64,000 bases of DNA from Bilabrum cf. latius (taxonomy: Eukaryota), in the NCBI GenBank assembly GCA_965178125.1, contig OZ237762.1, positions 806,001-870,000 on the forward strand. Direction: 5' to 3'. This document shows positions 6,244-53,244 of this stretch, piece after piece; positions within the stretch are counted from its first letter, which is position 1, and the number at the start of each line of letters is the position of its first letter. The translations under genes were made by a program, and so were the position numbers. The notes under the pieces were generated by a model, which searched no databases, was not told the DNA's origin, and saw only the letters and a program-made list of their open reading frames with translations.

Positions 6244-9138
6244 ATGAGTGGTAGAGGAATACCAAAATTGGACTTCACCCGATTGGATGGATTAGACCAG
6301 GAAGGGTCCTTGGGAAATGTAGCTTCTTCGGGTGTTGCAGCAGGCAAGCATGTTCGCCCTCCTTCCTCATTTCACCACACAAAGCAGACTGGTCACAGTG
6401 TAGGAGTGAGTGGTGCATCTGGTAGGAATAGGAAATAGGAAGTCGGCTCGCGAGAATAGCTAGACAAGCTGAAACGCAGTGCAGCTATTGCGAATGGATA
6501 CCTGCGCGATTCCATGCAGCGCAACCGCACGGTCGAAAACAGCGAAATTTCATCCGAGGAGAGCAGTAACGAGCTTGGAAGGGTAGTTGATGACGTCCCT
6601 ATGACAGCTAGGAGCCATGCACAACAAATCATGCTGCTGGCGGCCGGCGAGGTGCACGTTATCGCCATTCGATCGCGTTTCGTGCGCGGGGCAATCGCAA
6701 TGGCAGCTCACGGCATCCTTCTTGGAATTGTGGTCGGTGCGATGCAGCACCAGTACGGTAGAATCCCCTCCACGGTGCAGCCGGGCGCCGTGGGCTCCTC
6801 GGCGCTCAGCATGCTCACAGCCGCCATCGCGGTGTCGGTGACCTGCGCCGGCCTCGTCCTTGTTGGAGTGCTCACTCGAGCCAGCCCGGGCTATCGCATG
6901 GCGGGCGCTCTGCTCCTTACCTGCATGTCCATCGTGACGATGGTGGCGCTGTTCGCCGGGATCGCGGCTGCTGATGCGCTTCACAGGCAGAACCAGGAGC
7001 GTGGCGCGTTCCGCGGCGAGTGGCGGAACCTGAAGGTGCAGCTGGGGTTCAGCTGCTTTTTCAGTTTCAGTTGCATGCTATGGACGGGAGTGTACGTGGT
7101 CGCGGCGCTGAGTGCCTGGGGCGAGGGCTGGTCGGAGCTGGGTGAGCATGCCTGGGTGGCGGTGGAGTCGAGGGAACAACGGAGGTGTTAGCGGATGCTT
7201 GGGGAGCTGAAGGTGTCGTGCATGGGGGAAGCTGCCACTGGGGCGGTGTCCAAGGTGACAAGGAGGAGAAGGAGGCGGAAGAAGAGGGGCCGAATGGGGG
7301 GCAAGGGGGGCCGCGGCAGAGGCAGGGACGGTGCCAGGGGCAGGAATGGTGCCAGGGGCAGGGACGATAGCAGAGAGGAGCTGGTGGGAGGCGGCTCGGG
7401 CAGCGAGGATGGGAGCAACTGGAGTGACAGGGGCCAAGGAGAGGTGTGGGAGCAGAACGTGCTGGAGGATGGGGATGTGGATGGGGGCAGTGGCAGTGGC
7501 AGCGGAGACTCTGATGGTACAGGCAGTGATGACAGCAATAGTGGGGATGAAAGTTATTCTGACAAGGAGCTGTCTTCGGATGAGGATCTAGAGATGGGTA
7601 GGGGTGGTCGAGCAGGCCGGGGCGAGCAAGTGCAAGGCAAAAGGGGGAAAACCAGGAGTGCTGCGCGTGGCGGTATGGAGCTGGCAGTTGGAGACAGCAA
7701 TGGGTCTGGAGAGTTCGAAGACGAGGACAGCGGTGCTGATGCCAGCGGCACAGGCAGTATTGCCGCGCTTGGTGTGGGCGGATATGATAAGGAAGAGGAG
7801 GAGGAAGACGAAGACGAGAACCAGTTCGGGACCTCCAGACCCACTGCACGCATGGAAGCTGGTGCTGCACTCACTAGGTCCACTCACCACGCTGCTTTCG
7901 GACGACGGCACGGTGCCGCCAACCAACAGCACAGCGTGGACGACCCAAGTGTTCCGCCAGCCCTGCGCCAGCAGACGGGTGGACGGCGCGACCTGGCACG
8001 GGCTCGTGGGGCTGCGGCAACGAGCACGATCCGACCGAGCGACATCCCGGTTCTGTTCAGTCCAAGGGCGGATCGAGCCGCAGGCGTAGGCCCGATACCC
8101 TCTCGGGCCGCTCTACAAGCAGTCAGCTCGCGGGCACCTGCAGGAAGCACGGGGAGGGCCTTGCTGATGAGGGGAGCCGGTGGCCATGCGGCTCGGCCCA
8201 GCCTGTCGGTTGGATCCGCTGCCGCTCCCACGGCTGACGGCAGTCGGCGTGCGCCGCAAGGGGCTGCAGTAGGATCGGTGGTACGTCCGACAACGCCCGA
8301 AGACAGCCCACCGGCAAGCCCAACATGTGCATTGCCAGGAGGAGCGGCAGGATCCGCGGCTAGTCCGCCACAAGCCACCGGGAACGGGGACCGACCGAGA
8401 TCTCGCCCGAGTGGAGGCGCTTCACCCCCAGAACCAAGTTTGGGCCCTTTATCGGCAGAAAGCGATCTTATGGGTAGCTGCTTGGACTCGCCGACGCAGT
8501 TTGCAGACGCCTGGTCGCAAGCCGAAGCTGCGGGTCAGTTCCAGTGCCAGGTAGTGCGGCCGTTCCAGGCAGATGCTCTCGGGCTACATGTGAGGGGGAA
8601 GGGGTTTGTGCTGGGTCCAAGCGCCTCTGCTGCCTCTGCTGCTTCGATCCCTGGGAGCGTCGGGGCCGAGCTCTGGTTCGCTGCAACCCGGCGGGTGGTT
8701 AAAGGCAGTGCCGATGCTGCAGCAGCTGGATGTGGTCTTGAGGACGGGCTGGGTGTGCTGTTTCTGTGCAGGTTGAGAGTGTGGCAGGGGAGAGTAAAGC
8801 CTGGTGCTGGGCCAGCTGACCTGCGCGGGGCGGTGGGGTCGGCCGTCGTGTCTGCGGCAGAGGATGGCAGGGGCAGCGGCCTGTTTGAAGGGGCCAGTGG
8901 GAAGGGAGGGGCAGGGCCCACCCCGGTCGAGCGAGGGTCGTTCGAGGCCCCGTGCGTGCTCGCGGCAGCGATCCGGCTGTGCGTGGTGCGAGAGACCCTG
9001 GAACGTGGAGGTGACATCCAAGTGGTGGGCAAAAGCTCGCACGGGCTGGACTTGGGGTCTTGTGCGAGTGGGTTTGTGAGGCAGCTCAGGCTGAGGGAGG
9101 TGCTATCAGTTGAGGAGGATGGGACCACAGGCAAGTAA
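6244..9138 (+). CDS. Hypothetical protein with ~4 TM segments and a long Gly/Ser/acidic low-complexity region
   Basis: ORFs 6238-6438, 6514-7191 and 7195-9138 are in one frame, linked by 3 TAGs. Ends TAA, immediately followed by AT-rich intergenic DNA. Confidence 0.7.
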
Positions 9139-9288
9139 ATTCGTAGAAGCAGATCTTGGTCCTGGATTCAGAAAATGCTAAGTTTCTAGAAAGTGTTACA
9201 TAAGGTTATATCTTTAATAGTTAACAGCGGGAGTAGACCAGACAGTGCAGTGGGTAGCAGACGGCATGCCGACTCGGCCGGACTCTTG

Positions 9289-12200
9289 TCACTTTGTATC
9301 CTGCTCCTGCCCACCCGGAGGCTGCTGCTTCGGCTTGGGAGAGAGGCCGAGCCCAATGCCTGCCATCTCCACCACCCGCCTTAGACCGTCCTGCAGCGCC
9401 GAGGCCATGCTGGGCGAGGGCGCCACGTCAGACTCTGCGCCCTGGCCGTCGCCAGCAGATCCTGGCGCAGTGCCAGGGGATTTGATAGATAGAGACTGCT
9501 CATCAGCACCACCATTCTGATGTGCTCCGCCGTGTGAGGAGCTACTGCTGCTGCTGCTGCTCGTCGCCCCTCCGGTCTGTTGCTGCCGGCCGCCCAGGCC
9601 CTGCCACAGACTCATCGGGAAATGCATGGGGCCCTGCTGCGGGGCAGACCGGGGACCCGATCCGGAGCTGGATGCAGAGGATGACGATGATGCGGCAGAT
9701 GATGACGAGGACTATGAGCTTGTTCCCTGTGAGGCCGCCAGTGCATGCATGCCACCATACCCGCTCACACCGGTCCTGGATGCCTGCCCACTGGCCCCAG
9801 TGGCAGCACCACCCACGGTAGGTAGCAAGCCCGGGCCGTTGATGTCCGAAATCTCCGGGGTGTCATCCATGGGCAACTGCCGCTGCTCTTGCTGCTGCGA
9901 CGCCACAGCTGCACCGGCCGCACCGCTAGCACCCGCACCGCTGCCCCCAGCCGACCCATTGGCTCCGTCCTCGTCCCCCCCCTCATCTCCTGGGTCCACC
10001 CGCCCTCCCGAGTCAGACCCGGGCCCTGCCCCGTCGTCGTCTGCGTTCTTCATACTCATGCTGAACTGCATCCCGCCGCGGATCGTGCTCCCGAGTCCAT
10101 TGGAGGGCCCACCCTGCCCCTCGTCCTCCTCCCCCTCGTCCAGCTCCTCGATCATCATTGGGATCATCATCATGTCGCTCTCGCTGATCAAATCCTCCGC
10201 CCCCACCACGCGCACCTCGGGGTACTCGAAGCGGCCCTCGGGCTGCAGGGCATCTGCGGCGGCGATGAGGTCGTCGTCCGAGATTCGGGCGGGCCGACGG
10301 GCCATCGCCTCCCGCGCGTCGGCCAGGAGGACCCGCCTCCGGTCCCACTCAGAGGCGATCTGAGACTCAAGCTCGGTCAAGCGTCGGTTCCACGCATCCA
10401 GCACGCGCGGCTTCTCGTCGTAGATCGACCTGCCGGGGACTTTGACATACGCAGGCAACTCGAAACCGGCTGGGATCACACGCAGCCCGCGCGCAGCTGC
10501 GAAAGGCAGCAAAGGTGCCGCGACAGATGGGGGCCAATGGCCATCATCCAGATCCAGCTCCACTTTTTGGCACGGAACGACCGTGGGCTCCTGCATGTGC
10601 AGGTAGGCATATCCGCCCATCCTTGCGATAGTCTCCTTCTATTCCTTCCTAACGGCAGCCGCGGCAGTGTGGCTGGACCTCCGCTTCCTCCTGCCCTTGG
10701 CCCCGCCCAGCTAGCGGTTCAGTCTCACGAGCAGCTACTGGGCCGATTCCTCGAGGACAGTCACCTTGCGACCCTCGCGCTTCAGGCGACGGGCAAAGGC
10801 AGCCGGGGTGGCCAAAGGCGTGGCGAAGAGCTCCCCGTGGCACCCCAGCCGCGCCGCCACGACCGCGTACGTCCTCAGCCGCTGCCAGCAGTCCCCGTCT
10901 CCCCCTGCAGCCTCCAGGACGTCGGGATCCCCAAGGGCCTCGCTCAGGAAGGAGTGCGCCTGCGCGAAGTCCCGGATGGCAGCCACGTCGCTGGGAAACG
11001 CATCTTCGACTAGCTAGCGAGTGGTCTTCGGGATCTATCCCCCGGAGCCGACCGGCGGGGCCGGAGCAGATCTACCGGTGGACCGAGTGGCGCCTTTTGA
11101 CCCGCCCCAGGGCACAACCGTGCCGGCACCGGCAGCCCCACCAGCCGGGATACCGCCCTTGCCATCGATCTGCATGGTGTCTGCGACGTCGGGCGCGTCC
11201 AGCCGGTTGGGTGCGATGATTCTCTCCACGACGGCTCTGTTGGCGTGGAGGGTCTGCAGCGCCTTGTGCACCAGCGAGGCGATGTCGTCCGCGTTGTAGC
11301 CTAGGCTGCCCGTCCCTTGGGTCAGGTTGAGCCAACGGCTGCCGAGCCCGCCGCCCCCTCGACCCACCCCCCCGACTGAGCTGGCAGTCGTGCTCGCCGA
11401 CATGCCCCCCAGGCTCATGGTGCCGGCCTCGCTGGCTTGTTCTCCGGATGCCTCCCACGCCTGCGGACCTCCCTCTCCCTGGGCCTGTCCGCCTTCCCCA
11501 GGCATCGCCATGCGGGCCTCCCCAGGGCGGTTGCCCGCTGCAGTCCCAGCCGGCCCGGAGCCGACCATACCCACCTGTCCGCCTGCCGAGCTCTGGTACT
11601 GCTCGGCACCCCCCTAACCATCGCCCTCATCATCATCATCGTCGTCGTCGTCGTCCAGCATTGCATACTCGTCCTCATCCTCGTCATCGTACGAGTGGGG
11701 ATTGAAGGCCCTCCGCAGCTGGAAACGGATCGAGGAGGACAGGCAGTCGCTCACGCGGACGTGGAAGGGCAGGGGCACACCTCGCCCACGCACTCGAAGC
11801 AAAGACAGCTGCCCTAGCAGGTGCTGCGCGCACCTCTTTGCCACGGTCCACGTGTACGGTATCTCCAGGCTCGGCCGAGGGCCCGCGGGGCTGCCTCCTT
11901 GCTTGCCGCTGGACCCTCCAGTACTGGTGGGGTGGTAGCAGCGGAGCCCGCACTCCACCAGATCCACCGGTGGACTAGACGCACTGCCAGCCCGGGCCAG
12001 CAGCAACAGGAGAGCGCCCAGCGAGCAGCAGGCGCGAGTCGAGGACAGGAGCCCACCGTGCCCTGCCGCACCACTGCCAGAGCCGATCGCTGCCATCGCG
12101 TCCCCGCAGCAGCACGCCGCCGACACCAGTCGCGGGCCAAGGGGCTGCACCACCCCACCCGATGGCAGCTCCCAGCCGCGCTGCTCCGATGCCTGGCCCA

Positions 12201-15200
12201 CAGCAGCGTCCCCAGCGGGATCCATGTAAACAGAGGGCGCTCTGCCGCCCACCAAGTACCTGCTTCTGTCATCGCCCGACTCTCCCGCCAGCGGCATTGC
12301 GACAGGGGACAGCTCTTCAGCCAGCCCGCACTTGCACACCGCCTGGAGCTTGACTCCGCACGACTAGATCCGCAACACACGCCGCAGCATCGCCTCAGGA
12401 GGGGTGTCCTCTGGCGGAGCAGGAGCTGAGTCCACCACAGAGTCAGATTCACCTCCTGCCGACGCAGACGCAGCAGCGGTTGGGGCTTGGCCGGGTTGCT
12501 TTCTCTTCGCTAGTTTTCCTTGGTCCTGTGTCTTATGTGCTTCATCATCGCCCTTGCTAGCCTCGTCCTCATCCTCGTCCTCGTCCTCACCCTCGTCCTG
12601 CATGGCAACCTACTGGCTGCTGCTACCACCGGACGATGACCCCGAGCCTGCGGCCGACGACTCCGCGCAATCGATCGATTGCGACGCCCGCACCACCTCC
12701 TCTGGGAGCGCCACGGACTGCGCCTCGTCCTCGAACTCGGATGGCACGGGCTTTCCTTCCTCGTTCACCTGCACGTCCGGTGGCACGCTGCCCACTGTGC
12801 TAAGGTCGAAAGTGCAGAACCTCACGCGGCGCCGGGCACCGCCCCGCTCGCGCCTCGCCGCCTCGTCGTACTCCTCCACGCCAGCCAGCCGCTTGGAGCG
12901 CCGCCCCTGCGCCTGCGCCTGCGACTGCGACTGGGCCTTGGGCAGGTCAGCGGACGCCCCCAGATCCCTGTCGCTGCCGCCCCAGTTTATGGGCGTGGAC
13001 CTGTACCCAACTGCGCTACCGGCCGCGCCTGCACTGGTTCCGGCACTTGCGCTTGCGGTGGCAGGGCCACTGGCAGGCCCCAGCTCGGCGCCCACCTTGC
13101 GCTTCTCCTGCGTGCTGGCGTGCCGCGAGAACTTGCGGAGGATGCCGCGCGTCCTCGTGGGAGCACCGTGGCTGCTTACTACCTGGTTGGACGATGGCAA
13201 ACCACCTGCTGCTGCGCCCGCTCGCCGCTCAGCTTGAATAGCCTCCGCGCGGGCTGCGTCCGCCGCCCTCTCCGGGTCAAGCACGGAGTTTGCTCCGCTG
13301 GCCGCGAGCTCCTCCGCCCTGGCCACCGCCTCGCACATGTCACAGAGCAACCCCACCTCGTCCTCCCCGACCGCACTCGCCACAACGGAGAGACCACCAC
13401 TGCTCGCGGACTCTTTGCCGCTACCGCTGCTGCTACCGCTGCCGCTACCGCTGCTGCTGCTTGCGCCAGCCCCGCGCCGAGCTGCCCTCCTACCTCCTCG
13501 CCCCATCCCGGCATTGCCACGGCTGCTGCTGCTGCTGCTGCCGGCCTTTTTCCCGTCCGAGGCCCTGGCCCAGCACCGCAGCGACGCCCCAAGCAACTTC
13601 CCGCTCACCGACTCGGAGCAGAAGAGGGCGTCGGCGCGCGCCCGGAGAGTCTTTCTCGCGTCCTGGTCCAAGGGAGGCAGCAGCTCGCCGAGCCCGCCCC
13701 CGCCCTCGGGCACCCAGCGAGCCTCCGCGCTGTCGCTCGAGCCTGCATCGATGCCTTGCCGGTGTTCCCCGGGCACGAGCCCCGAGAGGCTGGCCATGTC
13801 TCGTGCCGCCCGCGCGTCCACGAATGGCCATCGCCGCAGGTGGTACAGCTCCCTGCGCGAGTAGAGGCTGGCGGGGGCGTTCCTCCAAGATAGGTCGTCC
13901 AGCAGGCCTACCTGTGTGTCAGGTCCCGCAGCCGCATCTGCAGCCCCGTGCAGGCCCTCCTCTTCCTCCTCCTCGGCCGCCTGGTCGAACTTGCTGGCCA
14001 GCGACATGGCCTGCGGGAGCCTCCGCCCATGCCCGGCCTTTGGGTCCGTGGCGCCAGCTGAGGTGCCGCCCGCTCCTGCCTCCCGTTCCTGGCGCTGCTG
14101 CTTCTCCTTCTCCTGGGCTGCCCTCTTCCGAGTGGATCTGCGGGCAGACGAAGTGCCTGCTGCCGCCCCCGCGCCGCCCGGGGTGGCTCGCTTGGTGCGG
14201 TGCTGCCTGGAGGTCTTTGGCGGTTCTTTGCTCTCATCGATAGGCCCTGCGTGGTCAATTGTGGGACTCTGCGCGCTGGCTGCTTCGGGTGCCAGGGAAG
14301 ACGAGGACGAGGAGGAGGCAGATGCGGAGCGCGCGCTGCTGCCGCTGCTGCTGTCGCCCTGATTGGGCTGCTTCTTCCTCCTGGGGGACCTTCTAAAGGC
14401 GGAGGAGGACGAGGCCCCCGCCCCTCCCTTCCTCCTGCCCTCGATCTCACCGCGGGGAGAAAGGGAGGGCGGAGACCCGCTGGAGGAGCTAGAGGCAGAG
14501 TCGCTGCCGGGGGCCTGTGGGCTGGGTGCCGCGGGAGGGCTGCCACTCCCTGTGCTGGTGCCTTGGGAGGCACGCGGTGCGACGAGCGGACCCGTGGGCG
14601 CTGCGGGCGTGGGCGAAAGCGCGGGCGGGGCATGTGCCTTCACCCTGCGCAGCCGAGGAGACCTGCGGGCGGACCCCTGGCTCGCAGAAGCAGGCCTTCC
14701 TGAGGAAGACTCTGCAGCCCCGGCACTTGTTCTAGCGCTAGAGCTGGCCGCCTGGCTGCTGCCTCCATCCGCGCTCCTGGACCTCTGCTGGATGTGCGGC
14801 GGTGACCCAGGTGGTGCTCTCGCCCCGGACCTGGCCCCGGACCGAGCACCTGGGCCGCTGCCGGTGCCTGCGCTTGCACCGACGTCCACCGGTGGAGGAG
14901 AGGGCGGCACCAGCCCAGAGCCCCTGCGCGCCTTGAGACGGGGCGAGCGACGCAGCGGGGTGGGCGGGCCTGCCCCCAGCTCAGCCGACGACGAGCGTCC
15001 CCCGCCCCTGGAAGCAGACCGGGAAGCAGACCTGGCAGGGGAGGGCGACGGGCCCCTGCCTCGATAATTTGAATGCTCGCCTGCACCTGCATGCGATGCA
15101 CCCGCGCCTGCGCTGTGCTGTCGGCTGCTTCTGGCAGAACCTGCACCTTGCTCCCTCGCCGTGTCGGTCCTCCGTCGCTTGCGGGCGCTGCCTGGCTGGT

Positions 15201-15891
15201 GGGCCGGCAGCTGCGGCGGCAGACCCTCATCGCCGCTAAATCCACCTGTGGACTGACTGGCAGCACCGCTGCCTCCACGCCCGTGTCCCCGCTCTTCCCC
15301 CTGGCCCCCCGACACGCCATTCTCTTGCCCCCGCCTGCGCTTGCGACCCGCAATGCCCGCCCCGCGCTCCGCCTCTGCCGCCAGCTCTCTCTCCTCCTCC
15401 TCCCGCAGCACGCGCAGCTCCTCCGCAGTGGGTGGCCTGGTCCCCGACACCCTCCTCTTCCTGCCCCCCCGGCGGCCTCCGGAGCTCCCCGTGCTGGACC
15501 CGGAGCCGGATCTAGGGCGGTTTCCGACCCCACTGAAGGCCGCGCCTGTCTGATCGGGCTGAAGACGTGTCCGGGAATTGTCCGGGGACAGGGCGAGAGT
15601 TCCACCACGGGGCGGGCTCAGGCTCATGGAAGCCAGGCCGCCCTCGGCGCCGTCTACCGCGACATCCATGGAATCCAGCCCCGGCTCGATTTCTAACGAG
15701 AATTCGCGTGAAGACTCGTGGGACCCCCTGCTCCGGCCGCCGTTATCCATCTCCGACTTCGAACTGGCATCAGACTTTGCTACTGACCGTGCCGGCGGGC
15801 CAAGTCCACTTTGCACCGCACGCCGGGGGCTCGTGCGCCGCCTTGTGCGCGACAATGCCTTGGATGCAGTCTGTGTACGTGGGGATGCCAT
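9289..15891 (-). CDS. Large (~2200 aa) low-complexity hypothetical protein, S/G/A/R-rich with basic NLS-like clusters
   Basis: Seven track ORFs are in a single frame, linked by 9 TAGs with no TAA/TGA; ends TGA at 9289. The same frame stays open (TAG only) up to ATG 16236, so the start may be further upstream. Confidence 0.75.
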
Positions 15892-16557
15892 CTCAACACC
15901 AGCAACCGCCGTGTTTCCAGCTGCGCCGCTGCGCTACTGCCGCGCGGACGGCGCCTTGTTCGCGTGGCTCTCACCCTATGATGTGGCTTTAGCTGCGATT
16001 AAGCGTAGTTTTCGAATCAAACATATACACACAAACTATGTTGGGTTCCCAGAAGGTCTCACTGCAGCAAGATACTGAAAGCTGCTTTCCAAACGTTTGG
16101 CCCAGCAAGTACTCCACACCATTTCTTTCTCACAGATAGGTGCTTTTGCAGAAGTTCTCGACCCATTCTTAAGTTTCGGCACTGTCATGGACTTGAAAGA
16201 CATAGACTTGGCTCCACCATTTCCGCTTGCACGCATATTAAGATGAGAATCAAACCAGTGGATGGACCCGACGAAAGGCCGACTACAACCTCAGCCTGGG
16301 ATAGTCTAGTCACTTCTGTCCTATGCTTGGCAAATGGCAGGAAATGATTGATGTGCACGTCCCACTAATAGTATGTGGCAAGTAAGGGTGTTTCCAAGGA
16401 AGCTGTTGAAGGATTGAAGGCAAATCTCAAGGGTATACCATATTTTCTTGCAACAATTTACACGGTACAAACAACAGTTGCCGTTGCCTAGGTTGCCAAA
16501 GATACCCTTTTAAACGCCCGAGTATGTCAAAAAGAGCAGATTGAGTGAACCTGAATC

Positions 16558-25909: not shown

Positions 25910-25966
<57 letters not shown>

Positions 25967-35686: not shown

Positions 35687-35776
35687 CTTCAGTATTGTGT
35701 ACACTCGTCATACTCTGCTGCAGCTTCTCTGCAGTAACAAGCGACATCAGGGGAGTTGTACAGCAACTCTTGTGGT

Positions 35777-39878: not shown

Positions 39879-39995
39879 AGTACTAAATCTAGCAAAGTGT
39901 GTAGCCGTTGACGAACTTCTACGACTCGGAACTTCAAGTTCTGACTTCAAGTTGATGATGAACGTATTCCCTCTGCTGGCCAGATCATACTTGCG

Positions 39996-41306: not shown

Positions 41307-41514
41307 AGCCAACGTAGCGGCGCTCCTGGCCCTGGGTGCACTGCGAATGCGTGTGCGTGTCAAGTTTGGTGCAGTTTCTCTCAAGTTTTCCAATCAGTCT
41401 AGGTGTACCCTGTTGATTCTGCTGTTCCATCCACATCCAATCAACGCGCCCACTGCCCGGAACCATCGGGCTGCTCCACCCCGTAGGCGGGCCACCAATG
41501 GCTGCACAGCGCGC

Positions 41515-43866
41515 TCACAACGGCAAGCGTGCCGGTCGCTAGCCGCCGGATGCACGGAGGAGACCTAGGGCATCGCGAAACGAAGCCTGCTTCTACCGCT
41601 GCAACGAAAGCCCTACTAATCGTGTAGCAGCAGACTGCGCCACCTGCCTGGTCGCTCGGATCGCAGCTGCTGCGGCTACCCGCGAGGCAGCTCCGACAGC
41701 TCCCAGGCGAGCGTGTCTAGCGGTGGGACCGGCTTGCACTGCGGCAGCAGCTGCAACCCCTTCGGCTAGGGGTGATACGTCGATGCCAGCTTGTTTCCCA
41801 GCGCGGCCGTCTGCTTGCGAGTCGTGTCTCGTCTACACTAGGACTTGCATGGCTCGCTTGCGCGCCTCACTCACCGCTGCTGCACTAAGCGCGCCCCAAC
41901 TCTCCTCCATCTCTATTCTCACTGTGGCGGATCCGGTGCCCAGATCACCTGCACTGCTGTGTGGCACAGGTCCATTCGACTGCCTGTCACGCGCCCCTGC
42001 CTTAAAAGCAGCGACAGCGTTAGCTGCCACCGATTCGCACATTTGCACAGCACGAGGGTCCAGAACAATGTCGTCCACACTCACAATTGTCGAGACAGCT
42101 AGCACAAGCCCGGCAGTGCGAGGAGCGCGGAGCAAAAATGACTCTCGCAGATCTCTGGCGAACCGGGCGCCCTCCAGCGCATCCAGCCCAGAGCCACGGT
42201 CGCCAGCAATTGGCCCGTGATCAGGGGCTGCGGTTCCAGATGCGGACTGGCTGCACTCAGCACGGAGCTCGTATCCCAAGCCTTCGACGTCCTCCGAGCC
42301 GCGGGGAATCAGTGTGGGGGCGATCTTGCGCTTGCTCGGAGAGTCCGCAGGCCCTGCTCCTCTGGACTGCTGCTGGCTCGGATGCACAAACGAGCTTGGT
42401 GCCGCACCTTGAGCGGGATCTGCCTCGCGAAGCAAATCATTACCTGGATCAGCTTCCTGCCCGAAAGCACTGGGGGGCGCCGAGCTGCTCTTGCTGCGCG
42501 ACGGCGCAAGCAGCGCCTCGCAGGCTTGGCTAAGCTCCACAGCGACCTGGTCTTGGTGGGGGTCAGCTACGCGTGGGAAATGCCTGCCTACTCGCTCCGC
42601 GCAGAGCGGACCACTTCGTACTGACCCAGGTATCGCAGATTCTCTAATAATATCGGCGGCTACTGCCAGCAGGGTTTTCCCGCGGCGTAGCTCAAGCGCC
42701 CCGACATGACGTGCGGCAGAAGGACTGCTGGCACGAAGCTAGGGTGGGGCGCCTGCCTGGCGTTGATCCCCATGGCTTGCACTAGCCTACTCTCGTGTTA
42801 CAAGCGCGATAGCGTCTTCTAATGCGAGAGCGTCTTCCACCACCGCATGCACGAGCTCCCTGCGCGCATTCTCGGCGCCGGTACTGTCGGCACCTGCGGC
42901 GCCTGCACCCGCAGCAGCTGGAGGCTCTGCACGGCCACGATCCAATTGCAGTCTAAGAGAGCTCATATGCGCGCGTATCGTAGAAGTTCCATTCCCTATC
43001 ACGCCCAGGAATTCGGCGATCCCTTTGCAGAGCTCAACAGCACCAGCCAGCGAGCCCAGCGGGGGCAGATGCACCTGCAGATGGGTGCGGGGGGCAGATG
43101 ACCCCACGGTACGTCTGCCGTCTGAAGCCGGTTGCACGCACATAAGCATCGCACTAATACTGGCATCGTATATGCTATGAATAAGAGAAGCGCTATCGCT
43201 TGCTCGTAGTGCCTTTCCCAGAGCATCACATGTAAACAGCGAAGCTAGCCGGCCGTCAACCCGAGCCCGAACCGAGACCAGCCTGCCTGCAGACTCCCGA
43301 GGCGCAGGTCGGGTGCTGGCAACTTCGCCCAAAGAGCCAACACGCAGCAATGCGATTTCTCGAACGATTACACCTGCTACCCACTTGGCGTTGTCGGGGT
43401 TAGCGTGCTCGCGAAGCTTCTTGCCAAGCTCGTTCTGCAATGGCAATTGATCCCTGGAAGATTCCAGGGCGATGGCACGGTAATGCTTGATAAATGAAGA
43501 AACGGATCGCCACGCTTTGTACCTATTTTCGTAGGCAGGCCGGCGTTCAGCTTCGCTGTGCGTGTGCCGACTGTCAGCAACCGGATCGAAGGGAATACCC
43601 CCGGCCGATCCTAGCACAGATGCCGCCCAGTAGCGAGAAAAATCGTCTTCTTCTAGTGATGTTGCGGATGTGCCGCTTGAAACCGTCTTGCTTCCCAATT
43701 GTTCAAGCGCAAACTCTACCACGCCAAGGACAAGCTAGGAAGTCTCAGCTGAGAGCTTGAGCGACTTCAATGAATGTAATAGATCCTTCTTAGCTGACCG
43801 TTTTTCTTTCGCGGCAAACTCTCTGCATTGATAGGCGATCTAGCTTCCTATTCGGCTAGGCAACAT
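41515..43866 (-). CDS. Hypothetical Ala-rich protein
   Basis: ORFs 42787-43722 and 41833-42540 share a frame that stays open (~7 TAGs, no TAA/TGA) from ATG 43866 to TGA 41515. The 5' end may include upstream exons. Confidence 0.6.
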
Positions 43867-44258: not shown

Positions 44259-45445
44259 TCACTTCCGGTACGTTGTTCCGAAGAACGACGAGTAGGCTTG
44301 GTTAATTTGCTCGAGCGTGAGCAAGATGATCATCGCGTGGGGGGCGCACCGCAGGTAGTACGCTGACAGCCCCCTCCACAGGGCGAGAGGCCCCTCCTGA
44401 GTCACCACCTTCGTGGCGCAGTCCACCACCCCGCTGTACGGGAACTTGCCCGCGGCATCAGGTCTCATGTTCTGCAGGCGAGTCTTGATCAGGTCGAATG
44501 GCAGCGAGAACACTGCGCACGTTACCCCGGCGGCAGCGCTGCTCATGAGCTGCGTGCTGAAGTTGTCCCCGTTCACAGCCGTGATCATTTCACGGAACTG
44601 ATCGTAGGACGCCATCATCCCCACGTTCATGGCCATGGCGCGCAGGATGGTGGGCTCGCACCCCCGCCAAAGCCGGAAGAGCCCCTCCTCGCGGGTGATG
44701 CGCATTAGGGCGTCAAACACGTTCGAGTACCCCCTTCGCTCAGCTGCGGGTCGCATGCCGTCCGCCTGCATGCGCACCAAAGACACGTCAAACGGGTTTC
44801 CAATGAACGACGCGATGGCACCGCTGGTCATGGAGCTGGCAACCTTCAGGTGCACGGGCAGCGCATCCACCTTCTGCCAATCCTTGAGGAAATTGGAGAA
44901 TTCCCGATGCAAACCGATACGTGCCGTTCCATACACAGCCTGACGCATCAAAGCAGCGCTCAGTCCGGCGTACAGAGCCTGGACTCCTTCCTCGCGAATC
45001 ACGGTAAGCGCAACGGTGGCCGGATTCATCTTGGGGCCCTTCCCACCTTCGCCCAGCAGCTGCATGCGCACCTTTGTCAGGTCAATGGGGTGGATCTGCG
45101 GCATATCAAAATCGGATGGGCTCAGTGTCTCGCTGGAAGTGACAACAGGGATCAGCATGTCGGGCATCACGAGGCAGCTGATCGCAACTGGGGCGTAATC
45201 ACATGTCGCGCTTGCGAGCTCACGCAAGATGATGCAAACATGGCAGCACTTCCTCCGCATACGTACGGTTGGATGGCCTGAGCTACTGATGATCCTGCGA
45301 ATAGAGTGGCTCAAAGATACGTCTCCCTGAGGCAAGTCGCAGCTGCATTAGTGCATTGGACGTAAACCGCCGGAAACTACTGGAATAATAGTGCCCAGGC
45401 AAGGATCTCACCAAATGATCCATCGGTTTTCTTGGATCCAGCCAT
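44259..45445 (-). CDS. Mitochondrial carrier, 2-oxoglutarate/malate (OGC/DIC/DTC-like)
   Basis: 'QPYVCGGSAAMFASSCIHPIDLTKVRMQL', 'LYAGLSAALMRQAVYGTARIG', 'GNPFDVSLVRMQADG..ERRGY', 'SLPFDLIKTRLQ', 'RCAPHAMI'. Introns 45295-45411 and 45096-45223; no internal TAG; ends TGA. Confidence 0.93.
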
Positions 45446-45783
45446 CCTAAACGTCCAGAGCAAACTCAGTTTGTGACGCGTCGATGAGCCATGCCCTAGG
45501 CCTAGCGAACCTTTGCCCAGGTTCGGTCGAGTTCGATTGCGTTGGCCCAAAAAACTTTTTTTGAAAAAAGTCAAGATTCGCTCGTTCGTTCATCGTTCGG
45601 ACCTGGAGCCGGCGCTATTGCTGAATCCCGTGGAAATCAAACCATACATAACGTACGACTTGCTTGCTTTTTGCAACTGATAAGCGCCCCTTTCCCTCAC
45701 CTGTCCAGCCTTCGCCCAGCTGTTGCCCCGGCCACACAGAGCTCCAGCCTACCCGCGGGCCCTTCCACAGGTTGCGCTGTAAC

Positions 45784-46761
45784 TCATAACAGACGCACCC
45801 CTCGCACCTAACCACTGAAGCGATGGGAAGGTCTTGGCAGCACCGACCACCGCACCAACACCGCCGGCAAGCAGCCGTCACATTCCACGCCACTGCCATC
45901 AGAAGTGGTAGCGGCAAGCGCAGCTCTGCTCCTGGTTCCAAGGGTGCCGGCGGAACTGGTCCGCAATGCACCTGCCTCAGTCCATATGCGCCTCTTGTGG
46001 GCCTCCTCAACCTCGACTGGCCCTGACGTGCCCCGCGCGGTGCTCTCTTTGGGCCTGGACACCCGAACCGAGGCGCACCCTGTCCGGCACAGAGTCAGGC
46101 TGTCGCTTGCCTCGCCTTGAGCGCTGCAGACAGCCCACACTCGAATATATGCGGGGTCGTGCTGCTCGGGCAGGGCACTCTCCATGGATTCAAAGCCCTC
46201 CGTACCTCGGGGCGCTGCAGGACCCGCACCCTACCTGCTCGGTGGCTTGCCCGCCGTGGCTGAGCCGTGCTGTCGAGACGCGCTGGGCGCCCCCAAGCCG
46301 GTATTTGGTGATGATGCGTGCTGTAGGGCTGAGCCCTCAATACTGGCTCGCGAATTCAAGGCTGCAGTAGCCAAAGCTGGGAGTCGGGCGATTGCCGCAG
46401 CTCGGACACCCCCGGCGCCCAGTGCCCCGAGAATCGATTTCCCTCCCACCCACATTCTCCTACCACGGTGCTCCCCTTCGACTGAAAACATTGTAGTTGA
46501 ATGCAAATATCCTTTGGTTTTGAACGTCTTGTATACGAAACCCGCAAACTCCACGGTTTTGCCTGGTTTTGCTATCAGCTTTAGCAGCTCCAAGGAAGTT
46601 GCATCGATAGTTGACTGCCAAACTATGATAGGAACTAGTTTCCCAATCGACCGGGTGCACCTGGAGACTGCAACCAGGAGCTCAACAGCCTTTCTGCTGC
46701 TCGGACCGGCTTTGGGCTGCAGGCTGGCATAGGAGACAACCACGGCCTATCCAGCAGTCAT
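45784..46761 (-). CDS. Hypothetical protein
   Basis: ORFs 46231-46743 and 45808-46185 are in one frame via TAGs; ends TGA 45784. Start and upstream exons uncertain. Confidence 0.45.
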
Positions 46762-47104
46762 TGTGTGGATTATACAAAAGTTCTTGCAGTTTGTTCGCAG
46801 TTATTTAAAACGGCATGCCAAGCGTGATAGATTGGTTCAGCACAGGCTTGTGCTTCGCGGTCGAATGCACAGAAACAGTGCTATCGGCAAGTCCAAAATG
46901 TTCCGAGTTGGAGTCCATGACCAAACAAACCCGTCATTGGCTATACTAGTAGACAAGGATTCCATGATGTGGTAAACGAACGTGTATACTCGGTTCGATA
47001 TATGCTGGCTCGTCAGCCGTATGGCGTCCTGTCGACAATCGTCTGTCCAGTCAAGTACATCTATCATGATTTCAGAAAACCCAGCTAATCTGAACACAGG
47101 CGCT

Positions 47105-47603
47105 TTACTCGCGCTCTCCGAAGTACTCTCCGCGGTTCGAGTCCCTGCTGTCCTCGCGGCTACGCGTGAGGGGTGCCCCGTCAGGTCCGCTAACGTTCGT
47201 CGCCGTGATGCCACGATCCGACTCAGTGGGCTCAAACTCAACAACCTCGCCATCGCGAAGCATTCTGAATCCATCAGCCTGGATTGCGGTGTGATGCACA
47301 AACACTGCGGACAATAAAAAGCACGGCAGCTTCGACATCACTTCAGTTCAGTACATCTCATTACCGAATCATTGCGATGGCGAATGACAAAAAACACATA
47401 CCTTCCTAGTCGACCGCTTCATCGGGGATGATAAAGCCGTACCCGCGCTTCAGGTTGTACCACTTGACTGTGCCCTTCTGTACCTTGCCGATCTCCAAAG
47501 CCATTGACGCAGCGCTTCCGTGCAGCCCGCGTGCCGCTACACTCTGCGCAGACGATCGCAAAACTTGCATGCATACTCGCTGCATTGCACCGGTACGCAT
47601 CAT
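47105..47603 (-). CDS. Cold-shock-domain protein with a mitochondrial-presequence-like N-terminus
   Basis: 'KGTVKWYNLKRGYGFIIPDEAVD*EVFVHHTAIQADGFRMLRDGEVVEF..ATNVSGPDG'. Intron 47305-47401; TAG 47406-47408 lies between RNP1 and RNP2; ends TAA. Confidence 0.9.
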
Positions 47604-47767
47604 CTTGATAAGCTGTGATAGAGTGACGCGGGGGAAAGTCCGAATTATGTTCGCAGCAAAACGTCTCGTTATAATGGCATTTCGAAGTCCGGCCAAACTG
47701 CCCTGAACAAGTTGGCAGTACTCTCCTCGTGAACCGTACCTTCCTGCTTCGTTGTCTATTTTGGCAT

Positions 47768-49656
47768 ATGGAATGTACCATTTGCACGGATGACGTGTAG
47801 AATCCCGTGGCAACCCCTTGCGGGCACGTATTCTGGTATGTGCTGTGCAACTGATGCCCGCTCCCGTCCATTTCTTTGTTCATGTCTCAGTATTTATTTG
47901 AAATGTTGCCACTCGATATGTATGCAGCAAGGGGTGCTTATTTCAATGGCTAGCAAGAAGTCAAATGTGCCCAGTGTGTCGGAAACCGGCGCAAGCTAGT
48001 CGCTGCGCGGAGATCTCCGGTGAAGCAGCGGAGTTGCTATGTGGTTCGCAGCCCAGAATTGACCAGCCCGGGTTTGTGTTTGGAGCAAGCAATGGAGGGA
48101 GTCGTCCTGGGGACTCAAGCGACGAACAAGCTTCATTAGATGTTGCTGCCAGCGATTCGTTGCTACGTTCGATTCGCCAGAACTACTCGGCTGAGGCTAA
48201 AGATGGCTCCAATAATACAATAGCAAGAGATGCTGCTGGCGATCCGACGTTGGCACCTGGCAGAAGTACAGAGTCTGGGGATGCCCGCTTGTTGCAGAGG
48301 GCCGAGCAGCGCTACTCAGAGGCTCTCTGCGATGGGGCCAAGGCTTTGCAGCTGCATTGCTCCGCATTAGACAGGGGGGTTTATGCGCCGGGACTTGGCC
48401 TCCATCTTCTTGGAGCTCGCTTGTCAGCTTTGCTCGCTCACAACGGGCGCATCTGCCGCTTGCTAGAAGTCGGGTTCTTCTCTGCCGCTGCGATAGCGTG
48501 GATCTCATGGCGAGGGCTGCAGCACGTACAATGGTGCTTGGAATCAATCGGGTGGTCTGACTCCGGAACAGAGGGGGCATAGTCCATCGGTGCATACACA
48601 GCGTGGATAGTGGGCTGGCTGCAACTGGGGGTAGTCGCCGCTGCGGCTCTGTGCCTGGCCGCGGTCTTGGGCGGTACTCCTCAACAGCAGGGATCGGCGG
48701 CCCGGTGGCACGCAGGACTACTCGTGGCAGCTGCGGAATTGCAGCCAGCCGCTGGTCTTGCAGTGGCAGACTGCATCGAGATCACCAGCCGATTTGCGAG
48801 AGGATTCGCAATCTTGCAGCGAGAGAGCGAGCCTACCGCCAGCAGATCATCCCAGCACTCCCGACAGCAGCAGGGTGGGCAGTCCGGATCCACCAGCGGC
48901 ATGCCAGGCAGAGCACCCAACAGCAAGCGGTCTGCCCTTGAACGCCGTGGTGCTGCACTTCGCACAGGAGCCTCCGTGGTGGCCTGGGTGCAAGCCAGCC
49001 AGGCGGCCTACGCTCTGTGCGGCGGGTGGCCGCTGCTCCTGACCATTGCTGGCTTCTTGGCGCCCTGGTCTATGGCCGGGTGGTCGCGAGAGGTCACTCC
49101 ACACAACGCTCCTTCGTTGGCTGTGTATGCAAAGAACTGGCAGTCGCTCCACCGTTTCCGCAAGCCGCTGCAACGAGCCTTGCGATACTTCGCACAGTCC
49201 CAGCAGGCGCAGCTAGCCGCCGCATCCGCGCTCACCGCCTCATGTGTCGCCACTGGGAGCTTGTGGCCGCTGCGGCTTGCCTTGTTCGCAGTTTACTCGT
49301 CGATCCTGTGCGACGATACCATGGCCATGCTGGTGGAGGGCCTTCGCGTGCTAGCGGGGGCACTAGGGGCCTTGCGGAGACTGGCGCGCACATTTCCAGA
49401 GCTCTCGTACGGCCGCCCGGGTGAGAACGGGCTGGATGCGCTCCGCCGTCTACTGCTGCCGCAGAGGTGGCATCCGCCCCGTCGGCCCGTGACGTAGCCT
49501 AGCGCAAGCCAGGGGAATGCGCGGCCGCGTGCGGCAGGCCTGTATGCATATGGAGGAGTTGGCGTGCTGTCGACCGGAGTGCCCGGGGAAGAGGGCGAGG
49601 ACAAGCTGTCACGGGTGGTGGGGAGGCTGATCGGGCTGAAATCTACTTCCGCCTGA
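47768..49656 (+). CDS. C3HC4 RING-finger membrane protein (putative E3 ligase)
   Basis: 'MECTICTDDV*NPVATPCGHVFCKGCLFQWLARSQMCPVCR' assembled across intron 47836-47927; hydrophobic segments downstream; 3 TAGs; TGA 49654-49656. Confidence 0.8.
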
Positions 49657-49767
49657 TATCCGTGGGCTGGAACAAGGCAGTTTACACATGGCGTGTGTTA
49701 CAGAGAACCTGCCGTGTCTCCCAACAAGTAGACTCAAGTAGACTCAACATTGACTGTTCTAGAATGA

Positions 49768-50804
49768 TCAGAAGCCAAACAAGCCGCCTCCAAAACCGAA
49801 GGGGCCTCCTAGGCCCGAACCGCCCCTTGCCCCCGAATCCCCGCCGGTTGTGCCCCCGCCCCCGTCCCGGCGTCGGCTACCGCCGGCGTCACCGCGTCGG
49901 CCAGCACCCGCCGAGTCCCGCCCAGCCCCCCGTGCACCATCTCCCAGGGAGAGTCTCGTGCCGTCTACACCAGTCCCCATACCTCCGCCCCCCAGCATGC
50001 CGAAAGGGCCTCCGAAAGCGGCTCCCCCAAGCATCCCATCGAATCCTCCAGCGCCCCCTCCACCTCCCTCGTGCTCCTCTGCGGAAGTCTCCACGCTGCC
50101 GTCCGCGTGTCGGATCGTGGTCACGGTTCGCGTGACTTGGCGACCACCTCGCACAATAGTCTCGGTTCGCACCGACTTGCTAGTGCCCATTCTGCCTCCC
50201 ATGCTGCTGCTGGAAGACATGAACACTGCACCACCAGAGCCACCCATGTCCATTCCGCCGCCGAACCCACCCATCATTTCTGCCATCATTGCATCGAGTC
50301 CACCACTCCTACCAAATGACCCACCAAATCTGTCAGACCTGCCAGACTTGCCGCGCCTTGCACCGTGGCTTCCCATGCTTGCAAAGGGATCTGAGCCGAA
50401 GAATGCCTCAAAGAGCTCAAAAGGGTCGATACCTCCCCCACCTCCGAACGATGGGCCATCAGACCCTCCCCCTTTGAATGCAGATTTGCCATACTTGTCG
50501 TACATATTACGCTTTGACGGGTCCTTGAGCACTGCGTAGGCCTCTCCAATTTTCTTGAACATCGCTGTTGCCTCTTCCACCTTGTCCGGGTTCTTATCCT
50601 GCGGTAAACGTAAATATATCCCATACGATTCAATCAAGGGGTAATTTGCACGCATTTATATCATTCGGTGAGTCAGAAGCTTGCTCTCACTGGGTGCCAT
50701 TTCACTGCAAGTTTTCTGTAGGCCTTCTTAACCTCAGACTGGCTTACGCTAGGTGCTATTCCAAGCGTATCATAATATTCAGTATCGGCTACACGGTCAG
50801 ACAT
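49768..50804 (-). CDS. DnaJ/Hsp40 class B (DNAJB6-like)
   Basis: J-domain '[49 protein letters not shown]', G/F region, '[13 protein letters not shown]'. Intron 50599-50690; ends TGA. Confidence 0.92.
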
Positions 50805-51089
50805 GAGTGGTGAGGCTCTTGTCTGTGCACACCAACAAAGTCTACGTGGCCAAATGCTGCCGCCCGAGTTGGCGCCGCGCCGCACTGCCAGCATCATGCA
50901 ATGCATTTACGGAACTAACGTAACAACACAGGCCCTGCGGTCGTGCAGCGAAAAGCACCAACAGATCTCGCAGACTGTATCGCTAGTAGTTCAACTAAGG
51001 CTTCTGTCTTAGTCTCGCGCTTGATTCGTGCCGCACGTTGCCCGCCGGCCAGTGAGCTGTCCACCGTTGAATCCACCGGTGTGCACCTA

Positions 51090-51797
51090 ATGTCAGGCCG
51101 AGCAAGCGGGACTACAGCGGGTATGGGGAGGTTGGCAAGTGATGCTCCACAAAAAGCAGTCGATGCGGCATACGATGCTGTCGATTAGTCAAGAAAGCCG
51201 GCACATCAGCTTGATGCGGCAGTCCTGTCTGTGGAGAGACGACTATCAGCGGACAAACAGAATCTATCAATTACAGCAGCTAAATTATTGCAGGAATCTG
51301 AAAAGATCCCAGCAGAACTCAGGGAGCATGTCAGCAGCCTCTAGTGGTCGGCAGGTCAAATCGAATCGAGCGTAGAGGAGGCCACTCAACTCATTGGGGC
51401 GCTCGTTGCTCAAACGCATCGAGCTCAAGGGTACATAAAGGCTGCTCGCATGGCACGAGATCTTGAATCGAGAACAGCTTCAGAGTGCAGAAGGCAGGTT
51501 GCGGACCTTGGTCGGGAGTGCAGCGAGCTGAGGGCCGAGAGCCAGCAGCGCCTGGCCAGGGTGCTGGAGCTCGAGAAGAAGGCTGAGAGGCTGCGGTCCC
51601 GGGAGGAGGACGCAATGCGAAGGCTGAAGGAGGCCCAGGATCGTGCAGGGTCTGCCGAGGACGTGTTGGCTTCCCGCGAGGAATCCAACGCAGTGCTCCG
51701 CAGCCGCGTTCTAGAGCTCGAGAGGACCTGCGCCCGGCTGAGGGCCGCCGCGAGGGGGGCCAGCAGTCCGTCTGCAGGTCTGGGGGGCCGGGGATAA
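51090..51797 (+). CDS. Coiled-coil hypothetical protein
   Basis: Open frame with 2 TAGs; heptad-like E/R/L-rich C-terminal half; ends TAA. Confidence 0.6.
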
Positions 51798-52143
51798 CAC
51801 ATGGCCGGCTATGATGTGTCATGTTGTCGCTTCTTTTTTGTTCTCATTGTCTACTCGCGCCGAATCCTGCATGCTCAATCGAACCGCGGAACTGGCCCCG
51901 GTCTTGTTACGAGCACCATCGTGAACTCGGCCAGACGGCCCGGTACGGCGCGAATCAAGCTTGCCTCCGATGCTGCCCAGTCCTCCAGCCTGTCACCACT
52001 TCAAATAACGACAAACCTTCCACCCTATTCTGAGGCAGGGGACGCACGCATGGCAAGACTATGTCACGGTGCGAGCTCCGTTCCGACAGCCGAAACACGC
52101 CTGCGATGATTTTGGCCACAAGCTGCGGCGTCCGTTTCTCCCA

Positions 52144-53244
52144 TTACACGGCAACTGCTACCCTATGTAAACCGTTGGTCGATGTACCGGTACTGCTGCC
52201 TGTCGCGGCTGCTCCGCCATGGTTTGCTTGACCTGGGCCTCTGACTTCCAGCCCGTTCGACACGTGCGAGTCTTCTTCGCTGGCATTGATCTTGTCTCCT
52301 TCTTGGCTGGTGGTACTCTTGCTCCCTGTCTCCCCACTGGCAGGGTCTTCTGGCCCAACCTCATAGCTAGAGGCCGGGATGTCGCCACGTTCACAGGGAG
52401 GCTCATCGCCGGCATCCGCAACCTACTCCGCGCCATCCTCAGCTGTCTACCGCATGAGCTCTGCCCGAGCGAAACAAGCCAATAGAGAAGCGACCCCAAA
52501 CGTAGCAACGAGTCCAACCCCCAGCAGCACCCAGCGAACCACAGATGCAGTACTCGTGCCGGAATCATCCTCAGTGCCTCCGCCTGCCAGCGCGAACGCC
52601 AGATCACCTGCAATGGCACCAAGGTAAACATAAGCAGCACCGCCAGGAATCATGCCGATGAGCGACCACAAGCCGAATATTCCAGCCGGAATTCCTTGCG
52701 CCCCGCACCACAGGTTGAACAGGCCGAATGGGACGACTGGAGACAGCCTGCACAATAGCACCACGCGCCAGGCATGCCCGGGACGCAAAATAGCAGCTTC
52801 CAGCACTTCGAGCGCCCTGTATTGTCCCGACAAATCATGCACGCATGTTCTGAAACACGCGGTTGCGGCGAAATAGTCCGCAATAGCGGCTGCCTCGGCA
52901 GGCAACCACGAGCAAGCCAGAGCCAAAGGGAACCCTACAGCCCATCCATACGCCCCAACAAATACAAACCCTGATCCAAGGGTCAAAGCAGATGCTGGGA
53001 CCAGCATGGCGGCAAGGGCAAAGTACAGCAACGCAAAAACAATAGCACCCCACCAGCCGCTGTCAGCCACGAGCTCAAGAAAGGCTCTCAACCATCCGAC
53101 AACTATCCGAGTGGATAGCGAGTCAATCACAAGAATCGCGACTATGGCGATAATTAGAACGGCTGCAGCCCATTTATACCTATACTTCCAGCAACAATTC
53201 AGATCGCCTGGATTTGCTTCGCTCTAGCTCTGCTCTGGCTGCAT
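52144..53244 (-). CDS. TVP38/TMEM64 (VTT/DedA, SNARE-associated) membrane protein
   Basis: 'LVPASALTLGSGFVF', 'VVLLCRLSPVVPFGLFN', 'GMIPGGAAYVYLG'. 3 TAGs; ends TAA. Confidence 0.85.

Follow-up and report, generated by a model that had tools for sequence, protein, structure and literature searches.

Probable reassignment of UAG to glutamine, with UAA kept as a stop codon, in the nuclear DNA of a GC-rich protist

The 64-kb stretch of contig OZ237762.1 considered here (the whole of it is called the window, and all coordinates below refer to it) raises the question of which of the codons TAA, TAG and TGA still end translation in its genes. The initial annotation had proposed that TAG is a sense codon while TAA and TGA are stops, corresponding to NCBI table 15 and not to table 6. 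In our assessment it is very probable that the window comes from the nuclear genome of a GC-rich protist with few introns, in which UAG encodes glutamine and UAA and UGA are the sole terminators, as in table 15. The earlier proposal is upheld by the codon counts within the window, by codon-usage scores and by the pattern in L001, a metagenome contig from a diverged relative. It has a further basis in the exchange of TAA and TGA at orthologous gene ends and in the glutamine found in close relatives.

The GC content of the window is 59.8%. With the standard stops it contains 21 frames of at least 300 codons, comprising 9,603 codons in total, and the longest has 1,108. When TAG is read as sense, 51 such frames with 29,852 codons are found, the longest having about 2,334, 1,541, 1,334, 1,219 and 1,215 codons. 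When TAA is made sense instead of TAG, merely 25 frames with 10,966 codons are obtained and the longest is unchanged at 1,108. Two of the genes opened by TAG are the following:

9289-16290, minus strand: the longest open frame, about 2,333 codons, with 12 in-frame TAG codons and a TGA end
31085-35707, minus strand: the lower-GC 4.6-kb gene (about 1,540 codons), which ends in TGA and contains 28 TAG codons in frame and no TAA

The figure of about 28 TAGs given earlier for the second gene agrees with our count. The TAG-open frames are ordinary eukaryotic genes. They encode a HRD1/synoviolin-like RING ligase, an FkbM methyltransferase, a BRCT protein, an RSN1/OSCA-type channel, a 5'-nucleotidase, ARP2, a GH3 glycosidase with a WSC domain, a glycosylasparaginase (Asparaginase_2), a tubulin-tyrosine-ligase-like (TTL) protein, a kelch protein, a mitochondrial carrier, a DnaJ protein, a VTT-domain protein and a cyclin-like protein. 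The TAG codons are spanned by Pfam domains in eleven of these (HRD1-like, FkbM, BRCT, RSN1/OSCA, 5'-nucleotidase, ARP2, GH3, asparaginase, TTL, kelch and VTT).

For counting, 25 gene models were curated, each running from the first ATG of the frame to the stop, with introns removed where these are shown by RNA contigs or homologs (the ARP2, kelch, cold-shock, RING, DnaJ and cyclin-like genes). The pair of open reading frames at 45784-46800 (minus strand) and 46121-46975 (plus strand), with no Pfam match on either strand, was excluded from all counts because neither strand could be preferred as the gene. The 25 models hold 17,808 codons, with no in-frame TAA, no in-frame TGA and 131 in-frame TAG; some of the first-ATG starts lie too far upstream (certainly that of ARP2), and a few of the 131 may therefore be in leaders. 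Thus the claim that no exon contains an in-frame TAA holds for all models. At least one TAG is present in 23 of the 25, and the overall frequency is 7.4 per 1000 codons. The models end in TGA in 19 cases and in TAA in six, as had been stated for the genes of both kinds. The use of TAG per gene drops with higher third-position GC (Spearman rho -0.65, p=6e-4, genes of at least 200 codons), ranging from 22.5 per 1000 codons in the gene at 60303-62441 to none in the carrier and DnaJ genes.

It is important to ask whether TAA might also encode glutamine, with TGA as the sole stop as in table 6, and be rare only through GC richness. The genome is 60% GC, and codons ending in A are a minority (172 CAA and 477 CAG in the 25 models). 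However, about 47 in-frame TAA are expected from this CAA:CAG ratio despite the bias, and none is observed (P(0) about 3e-21); the 95% upper bound for in-frame TAA is 0.17 per 1000 codons, compared with 7.4 for TAG. Such a code is also opposed by the long frames, which are not lengthened by making TAA sense, by the coding signal, which stops at six TAA codons, and by L001, which lacks in-frame TAA and shows a swap of TAA and TGA at three orthologous ends. We regard it as extremely unlikely.

The six genes reported to end in TAA do so. All six codons were verified at the positions and on the strands given by the initial annotation, and they close long frames. In the lines below, the codon score is a leave-one-gene-out codon-usage score averaged over 40 codons, which is weak for a single site and gives a clear difference between groups; X5 and X7 are two sequencing runs taken to be RNA, as discussed further on.

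9136-9138, plus strand: TAA terminator of gene 6109-9138 (no Pfam family); codon score 0.31 before and 0.08 after
36879-36881, plus strand: TAA terminator of the cyclin-like gene (exons ..35973, 36067-36151 and 36246-36881); its introns are seen in spliced contigs of X5 and X7
41304-41306, plus strand: TAA terminator of the glycosylasparaginase-like gene (Asparaginase_2); codon score 0.14 before and -0.14 after
47105-47107, minus strand: TAA terminator of the cold-shock-domain gene with two exons (the second at 47105-47304); the nearest in-frame TGA follows 11 codons later
51795-51797, plus strand: TAA terminator of the coiled-coil gene 50919-51797; the next in-frame TGA is 104 codons on
52144-52146, minus strand: TAA terminator of the VTT/TVP38-domain gene 52144-53256; an X7 contig (51843-53303) covers the gene and 300 nucleotides (nt) beyond the TAA

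The TAA at 9136 is followed after 150 nt by the end of a convergent gene at 9289. In the cyclin-like gene the next in-frame stops after the TAA come at 7 codons (TGA) and 9 codons (TAA). For the asparaginase, the L001 ortholog stops at a TGA five residues sooner than the window gene, after a common ...FAYQ.GN....ATPP tail. An X7 contig (50959-51851) ends 54 nt beyond the TAA at 51795, which is a weak hint, as contig ends are not RNA ends. Contigs and not reads were examined, so that lengths of 3' untranslated regions are hints at most and transcript ends are not given. The RNA contigs of the convergent coiled-coil (plus strand) and VTT-domain (minus strand) genes overlap by 9 nt (51843-51851) between their two TAA codons, and the 3' ends here are tightly packed.

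The absence of TAA from the frames is more than a consequence of GC bias or of a circular definition of the frames. The 16 largest frames (15,515 codons) contain not one in-frame TAA, while 118 copies are present in the two other frames; for TAG the counts are 123 in frame and 154 and 120 in the other two. As a check on circularity, all stop triplets having 50 codons free of TAA and TGA on each side were collected and both flanks were scored as coding or not. Both flanks are coding-like at 53 of the 289 TAG sites, but at only 2 of the 70 TAA sites and 2 of the 223 TGA sites. The two TAA sites were considered as possible split genes and rejected. One is located in a hexamer microsatellite array. 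The other (28793-28795, minus strand) is in an AT-rich 5' leader, shortly before the start region of gene 27380-28792, where the L001 ortholog aligns.

The coding signal leads to the same result. The mean codon score is 0.147 before terminal stops (n=25) and 0.128 after internal TAG (n=113), compared with -0.056 after terminal TAA (n=6) and -0.018 after terminal TGA (n=19). The score after TAG is higher than that after TAA (Mann-Whitney p=2e-4), while TAA and TGA do not differ (p=0.33).

The comparison with a relative was made by scanning metagenome contigs of the Joint Genome Institute (JGI) with ARP2. Three of the contigs obtained, L001-L003, are 100% identical where they overlap and were counted as one relative. 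L001 has 12.5 kb and a GC content of 51%, and it has the gene order g27380 - ARP2 - g31085 - cyclin-like - asparaginase - g41515 in common with the window. The protein identities are 93% for ARP2, 64-67% for others and down to 28-34%; the ARP2 genes are 73% identical as DNA. The 3,251 codons of L001 contain 41 in-frame TAG, no TAA and no TGA, and the ortholog of gene 31085 alone has 24 TAG and no TAA. Here CAA is as common as CAG (56 and 52), and because TAA is nevertheless missing from the frames, the explanation by GC bias is removed. Out of frame, TAA occurs 64 times in 6,502 positions; about 44 in-frame TAA would be expected (scaled), and 0 are observed.

The gene ends show the same equivalence of TAA and TGA. 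In two genes, the cyclin-like and the asparaginase gene, a TAA in the window corresponds to a TGA in L001; g41515 has the reverse arrangement, with TGA in the window and TAA in L001. TGA closes both copies of ARP2 and of g31085. The code is common to the window and to the diverged L001, and therefore it is older than their split. Two differences in the arrangement of the genes were also observed. The GH3 gene, placed between the cyclin-like and asparaginase genes in the window, is missing from L001, and the stops of the convergent ARP2 and g31085 genes are 35 nt apart in L001 (3023-3058) and 620 nt apart in the window (30461-31085).

Other candidates of the scans were rejected as relatives of this lineage. 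L004 (35% identical) and L005 (31%) are distant actin-family matches only, and L006, a contig of 1.7 kb and 22% GC with an AT-rich ARP2-like gene, is unrelated; this gene has several in-frame stops, as expected in an organism with reassigned stop codons. The scan of genome contigs with ARP2 gave only two Asgard archaeal actins of 31-35% identity.

The presence of TAG in messenger RNA was examined in contigs of sequencing runs. Runs X5 and X7 are not recorded as RNA. Their contigs skip five GT..AG introns which are kept in the DNA run X1, and therefore X5 and X7 hold spliced RNA. These RNA-supported introns have lengths of 92-97 nt:

35974-36066, plus strand: intron
36152-36245, plus strand: intron
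47305-47401, minus strand: intron of the cold-shock gene, absent from the RNA contigs of X5 (depth 942) and X7
47835-47926, plus strand: intron
50598-50689, minus strand: intron

Over the TAG-bearing exons the X5 and X7 contigs have no letters differing from the DNA. The cold-shock gene, which has the deepest contig among those compared with the window, provides the following example:

47406-47408, minus strand: exon 1 TAG of the cold-shock gene, lying two codons ahead of the splice donor and within a spliced contig of X5 (47402-47593 joined to 47100-47304)

This contig has no differing letters at the TAG, and therefore the codon is present, unedited, in the mature mRNA. These data bear on the suggestion that the TAG-containing frames are an artefact, being pseudogenes or having their TAGs removed by RNA editing or splicing. 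Against it stand the occurrence of TAG in 23 of 25 genes, frames open for up to about 2,333 codons, RNA contigs that are identical to the DNA and unspliced at the TAGs, and L001 orthologs that keep long open frames under the same rule. The probability of such an artefact is close to negligible. A further run, X8, gave two long identical contigs (44905-49795 and 49792-53499) with a depth of 2-2.5 and short unrelated pieces, and holds no variant information.

The amino acid encoded by TAG was considered at positions which can be read in close relatives:

30132-30134 and 30141-30143, plus strand: two TAG codons in the actin fold of ARP2; Q at both in relative P0001 (91% identical)
37916-37918, minus strand: TAG in the C-terminal domain of GH3; Q in relative P0122 (95%)
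38669-38671, minus strand: TAG in GH3; Q in P0121
38555-38557, minus strand: TAG in GH3; the open reading frame of the relative is split at this very place, so that the TAG is common to both

P0121 and P0122 are two GH3 fragments on one contig of a relative with 95-96% identity. Glutamine is found at all four readable TAG sites in relatives of 91-96% identity, the number of sites being small. The TAG at 37916-37918 also aligns with the Q of ..LPGvQeeL.. in both PDB alignments that cover the site (7zb3 and 8c7f, solved GH3 enzymes). The predicted protein of a further relative, P0010 (95% identical ARP2), ends exactly at the first ARP2 TAG (30132-30134). At two further sites the proteins predicted for relatives break exactly at a TAG of the window, which fits TAG being common to both.

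The alternative is that TAG is sense and TAA a stop, with Leu, Ser or Glu being encoded by TAG. Most TAGs are in poorly conserved or disordered regions, and in the alignments of the window with L001, mostly of poorly conserved proteins and noisy, the partners of TAG are scattered over many codons. Nevertheless, CAA/CAG is the commonest partner class in both alignment directions (6 of the 31 TAGs aligned one way and 6 of the 37 aligned the other), TAG is paired with TAG twice, and among the L001 partners of window CAA/CAG it ranks third. The glutamine at four of four sites in the relatives, one of them being also a Q of the solved GH3 enzymes, is difficult to reconcile with another amino acid, and this alternative appears very unlikely. 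The data thus point to glutamine as the probable meaning of TAG.

Several observations weigh against the proposed code as stated. A sense TAA that is rarer than about 0.17 per 1000 codons would still be compatible with the sample (64 kb and one 12.5-kb contig). When the models are divided into quarters, somewhat more TAGs fall in the two outer than in the two inner ones (43/23/23/42, Kolmogorov-Smirnov p=0.07), which may come in part from first-ATG starts extending into leaders. Four other TAG sites in PDB alignments, two in GH3 and two in the asparaginase, are at R, A, T and a gap and are uninformative. A TAG is located within the last 20 codons in five of the 25 genes, where about 3.4 would be expected, and the asparaginase gene has a TAG two codons before its TAA.

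TAGs close to gene ends are what an ambiguous, context-dependent code would bring about, in which UAG is sense inside genes and a stop near transcript ends, or UAA is both sense and stop. Ambiguous codes of this type are those of Condylostoma, the karyorelicts and Blastocrithidia (tables 27, 28 and 31). However, about 3.4 genes with such a TAG are expected by chance at 7.4 TAG per 1000 codons. A Cys-rich C-terminus (KCCLWCCY in the window, KCTCWCW in L001) is conserved past the last TAG of gene 31085 in both species, and every frame continues until a TAA or TGA, after which the sequence is non-coding-like. In addition, in-frame UAA and UGA are both absent. We consider ambiguous decoding improbable; UAA and UGA show no sign of it, while UAG may still end some genes.

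A mechanism for such a code may be outlined by analogy. A tRNA-Gln with the anticodon CUA, one anticodon mutation away from tRNA-Gln(CUG), would read UAG. The C34 of this tRNA would be unable to pair with the A of UAA (a C:A mismatch), and because of this UAA would be able to stay a stop codon. At the same time eRF1 would still recognise UAA and UGA, but its recognition of UAG, through the G in the third position, would be lost or weakened. In the available parts of two papers the argument from tRNA(CUA) and eRF1 is made for Iotanema (PMC5304391) and for phyllopharyngean ciliates (PMC11687900). The sites of the eRF1 N-domain concerned with the third base are GTS, NIKS, YxCxxxF and L69 (motif list in the available part of PMC5304391). 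In the rhizarian exLh the change is L69A. An eRF1 gene was not found in the 64-kb window, nor did the tRNA scan and the Rfam scan of the window reveal tRNA genes or RNAs of Rfam families. The tRNA scan likewise found no tRNA genes in L001, L004, L005 and L006.

The lack of a tRNA gene in the window and L001 would also be in keeping with a mechanism without a dedicated tRNA(CUA), where the near-cognate tRNA-Gln(CUG) reads UAG once eRF1 ceases to compete there. Readthrough of UAA and UAG by tRNA-Gln in organisms with the standard code is reported in the accessible text of PMC13192750. On the other hand, TAG is used at 7.4 per 1000 codons and is found in the deepest-covered transcript among those compared, which argues for efficient cognate decoding, and a near-cognate reader would be expected to act on UAA too. 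Phyllopharyngean genomes with reassigned UAG carry tRNA(CUA) genes, as given in the available part of PMC11687900. This mechanism is unlikely in our view, and the reading of UAG by a cognate tRNA-Gln(CUA) is preferred.

Two more introns were removed from the gene models on the evidence of homologs or motifs:

695-787, minus strand: intron of 93 nt in the kelch-repeat gene, GTAAGG...CCGCAG, with Pfam kelch matches on both sides
29358-29444, plus strand: intron of 87 nt in ARP2, GTATGC...TCGCAG

Removal of the kelch intron gives ...AIGTQVYVFGG, a regular kelch motif, and its borders resemble those of the five RNA-supported introns. The sole same-frame continuation across a TAA in the window (784-786, minus strand) was rejected, as this TAA is part of the GTAAGG donor of the kelch intron. 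The 29 in-frame codons of the ARP2 intron are absent from all ten homologs that span the region (11 aligned). The DnaJ gene after removal of its intron reads ...KWHPDKNP... across the junction. The five RNA-supported introns all end in GCAG, and four of them in CGCAG. Altogether the seven introns of the window form a strikingly uniform class of 87-97 nt, six ending in CGCAG and one in TGCAG. Another, unconfirmed intron probably joins the frame at 908-1759 (plus strand) to that at 1542-4679; the former lies upstream of the HRD1-like gene and resembles the missing N-terminal membrane part of that protein.

Repeated sequences are also present in the window. Within the BRCT gene, 47.8 copies of GGTGCA (17425-17711) encode a long (Gly-Ala)n run, and long low-complexity tracts of Ser, Gly, Ala and Glu are found in many other genes. 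Near the end of the window, 57.5 copies of GGTTAG (62680-63025), equivalent to the common telomere unit TTAGGG and with the G-rich strand on plus, precede a 155-bp satellite (63087-64000), which reaches the window end in at least 5.9 perfect copies. This resembles either a subtelomeric region or an interstitial array of telomere-like repeats. In the DNA run X1, a short contig of depth 10 (21-27 nearby) joins 39833 to 41786 with three other letters between, omitting 1,952 bp which comprise the entire glycosylasparaginase gene. The join may be a deletion allele or an artefact of the assembly graph.

The lineage of the organism may be approached through its conserved proteins. The best named match of the mitochondrial carrier is Cafeteria roenbergensis (65%), and its other matches with a listed organism are all stramenopiles: Mucochytrium, Tribonema, two Pythium, Blastocystis, Pinguiococcus and Ascophyllum. 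The best named matches of ARP2 are oomycetes and ochrophytes (53-56%). In the ARP2 tree the window and its relative are on a long branch (0.79) outside all named groups, and the tree gives no placement. A scan of viral contigs with the mitochondrial carrier protein found no relative. From these protein matches the organism is possibly a stramenopile, although this placement is tentative. A full-text literature search, the coverage of which is incomplete and gives no proof of absence, found no report of nuclear stop-codon reassignment in a stramenopile. It is conceivable, though somewhat doubtful, that the code represents an independent origin of UAG-to-Gln reassignment with UAA kept in heterotrophic stramenopiles near the bicosoecids, being the first nuclear stop-codon reassignment in this supergroup, in a GC-rich genome and with at least two deeply diverged members.

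On that view, members of the lineage appear in several metagenomes and sequencing runs. Because standard gene callers cut proteins at every TAG, this lineage is misannotated as long as the code is not specified; for close relatives, the breaks of three database fragments coincide exactly with TAG positions of the window. Splits of UAG from UAA are natural experiments which show that tRNAs and eRF1 can tell the two codons apart. Each new independent origin is informative about codon capture versus an ambiguous intermediate, about residue changes in eRF1 and about the acceptance of a CUA anticodon by glutaminyl-tRNA synthetase. The present case is set apart from the published ones by its GC-rich genome, by TGA, not TAA, being the main stop, and probably by its lineage. 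It differs also in that genomic and RNA reads as well as a diverged relative are already public, which brings tests on the tRNA, eRF1 and the proteome within reach. If the stramenopile placement and the lack of an earlier description hold, the case will be of real interest for researchers on code evolution.

It remains to compare this code with known systems. The code of table 6, in which UAA and UAG both encode glutamine, is found in many ciliates, in Dasycladales and Cladophorales, in hexamitin diplomonads, in Streblomastix and in Amoeboaphelidium. These organisms share UAG as glutamine with the window, but UAA is sense there, in contrast to the absence of in-frame TAA in 17,808 and 3,251 codons here. 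The window, with 64 kb, at least 25 genes, GT..AG introns of 87-97 nt and 60% GC, is presumably unlike a ciliate macronuclear genome.

Reassignment of UAG alone, with UAA kept as a stop, is described for the rhizarian exLh (Leu) and for Iotanema spirale (Gln) in the available part of PMC5304391. The available part of PMC11687900 adds Scotinosphaera (Ser), Protocruzia tuzeti (Gln), Hartmannula sinica and Trochilia petrani (Gln), a clade of phyllopharyngean metagenome-assembled genomes (MAGs) from TARA (Leu) and the Oligohymenophorea PL0344, with three phyllopharyngean events in all. The initial annotation was thus right that the decoupling is rare, but the list of exceptions is longer than the one it gave. 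The decoupling of UAG and UAA itself is already published, and the organism of the window is most likely another case of such a code.

Iotanema spirale (Fornicata) is the system with the same assignment, UAG being glutamine and UAA and UGA stops, and a tRNA-Gln(CUA) is predicted for it; its eRF1 has T32G in the GTS motif (available part of PMC5304391). The two differ in that Iotanema, according to the same text, is an anaerobic metamonad known from its transcriptome and has UAA as its main stop, while TGA is the main stop in the window (19 of 25). Furthermore, the window encodes a mitochondrial 2-oxoglutarate carrier whose best named matches are stramenopiles. In Hartmannula sinica, Trochilia petrani and Protocruzia tuzeti, UAG alone is likewise changed to glutamine, and 78-91% of their genes use sense UAG, compared with 23 of 25 in the window. 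However, 87-98% of the genes of these ciliates end in UAA and UGA is the rarest stop, whereas only six of 25 end in TAA in the window (ciliate values from the available part of PMC11687900). In exLh, the TARA phyllopharyngean MAGs (Leu) and Scotinosphaera (Ser), UAA is a stop as in the window, and the amino acid differs from the glutamine proposed here. Finally, the crAss-like code-15 phages have the same table 15 assignment in viral genomes, as described in the accessible part of PMC9523058, while the window, with its spliceosomal introns and housekeeping genes, belongs to the nuclear genome of a cellular organism.

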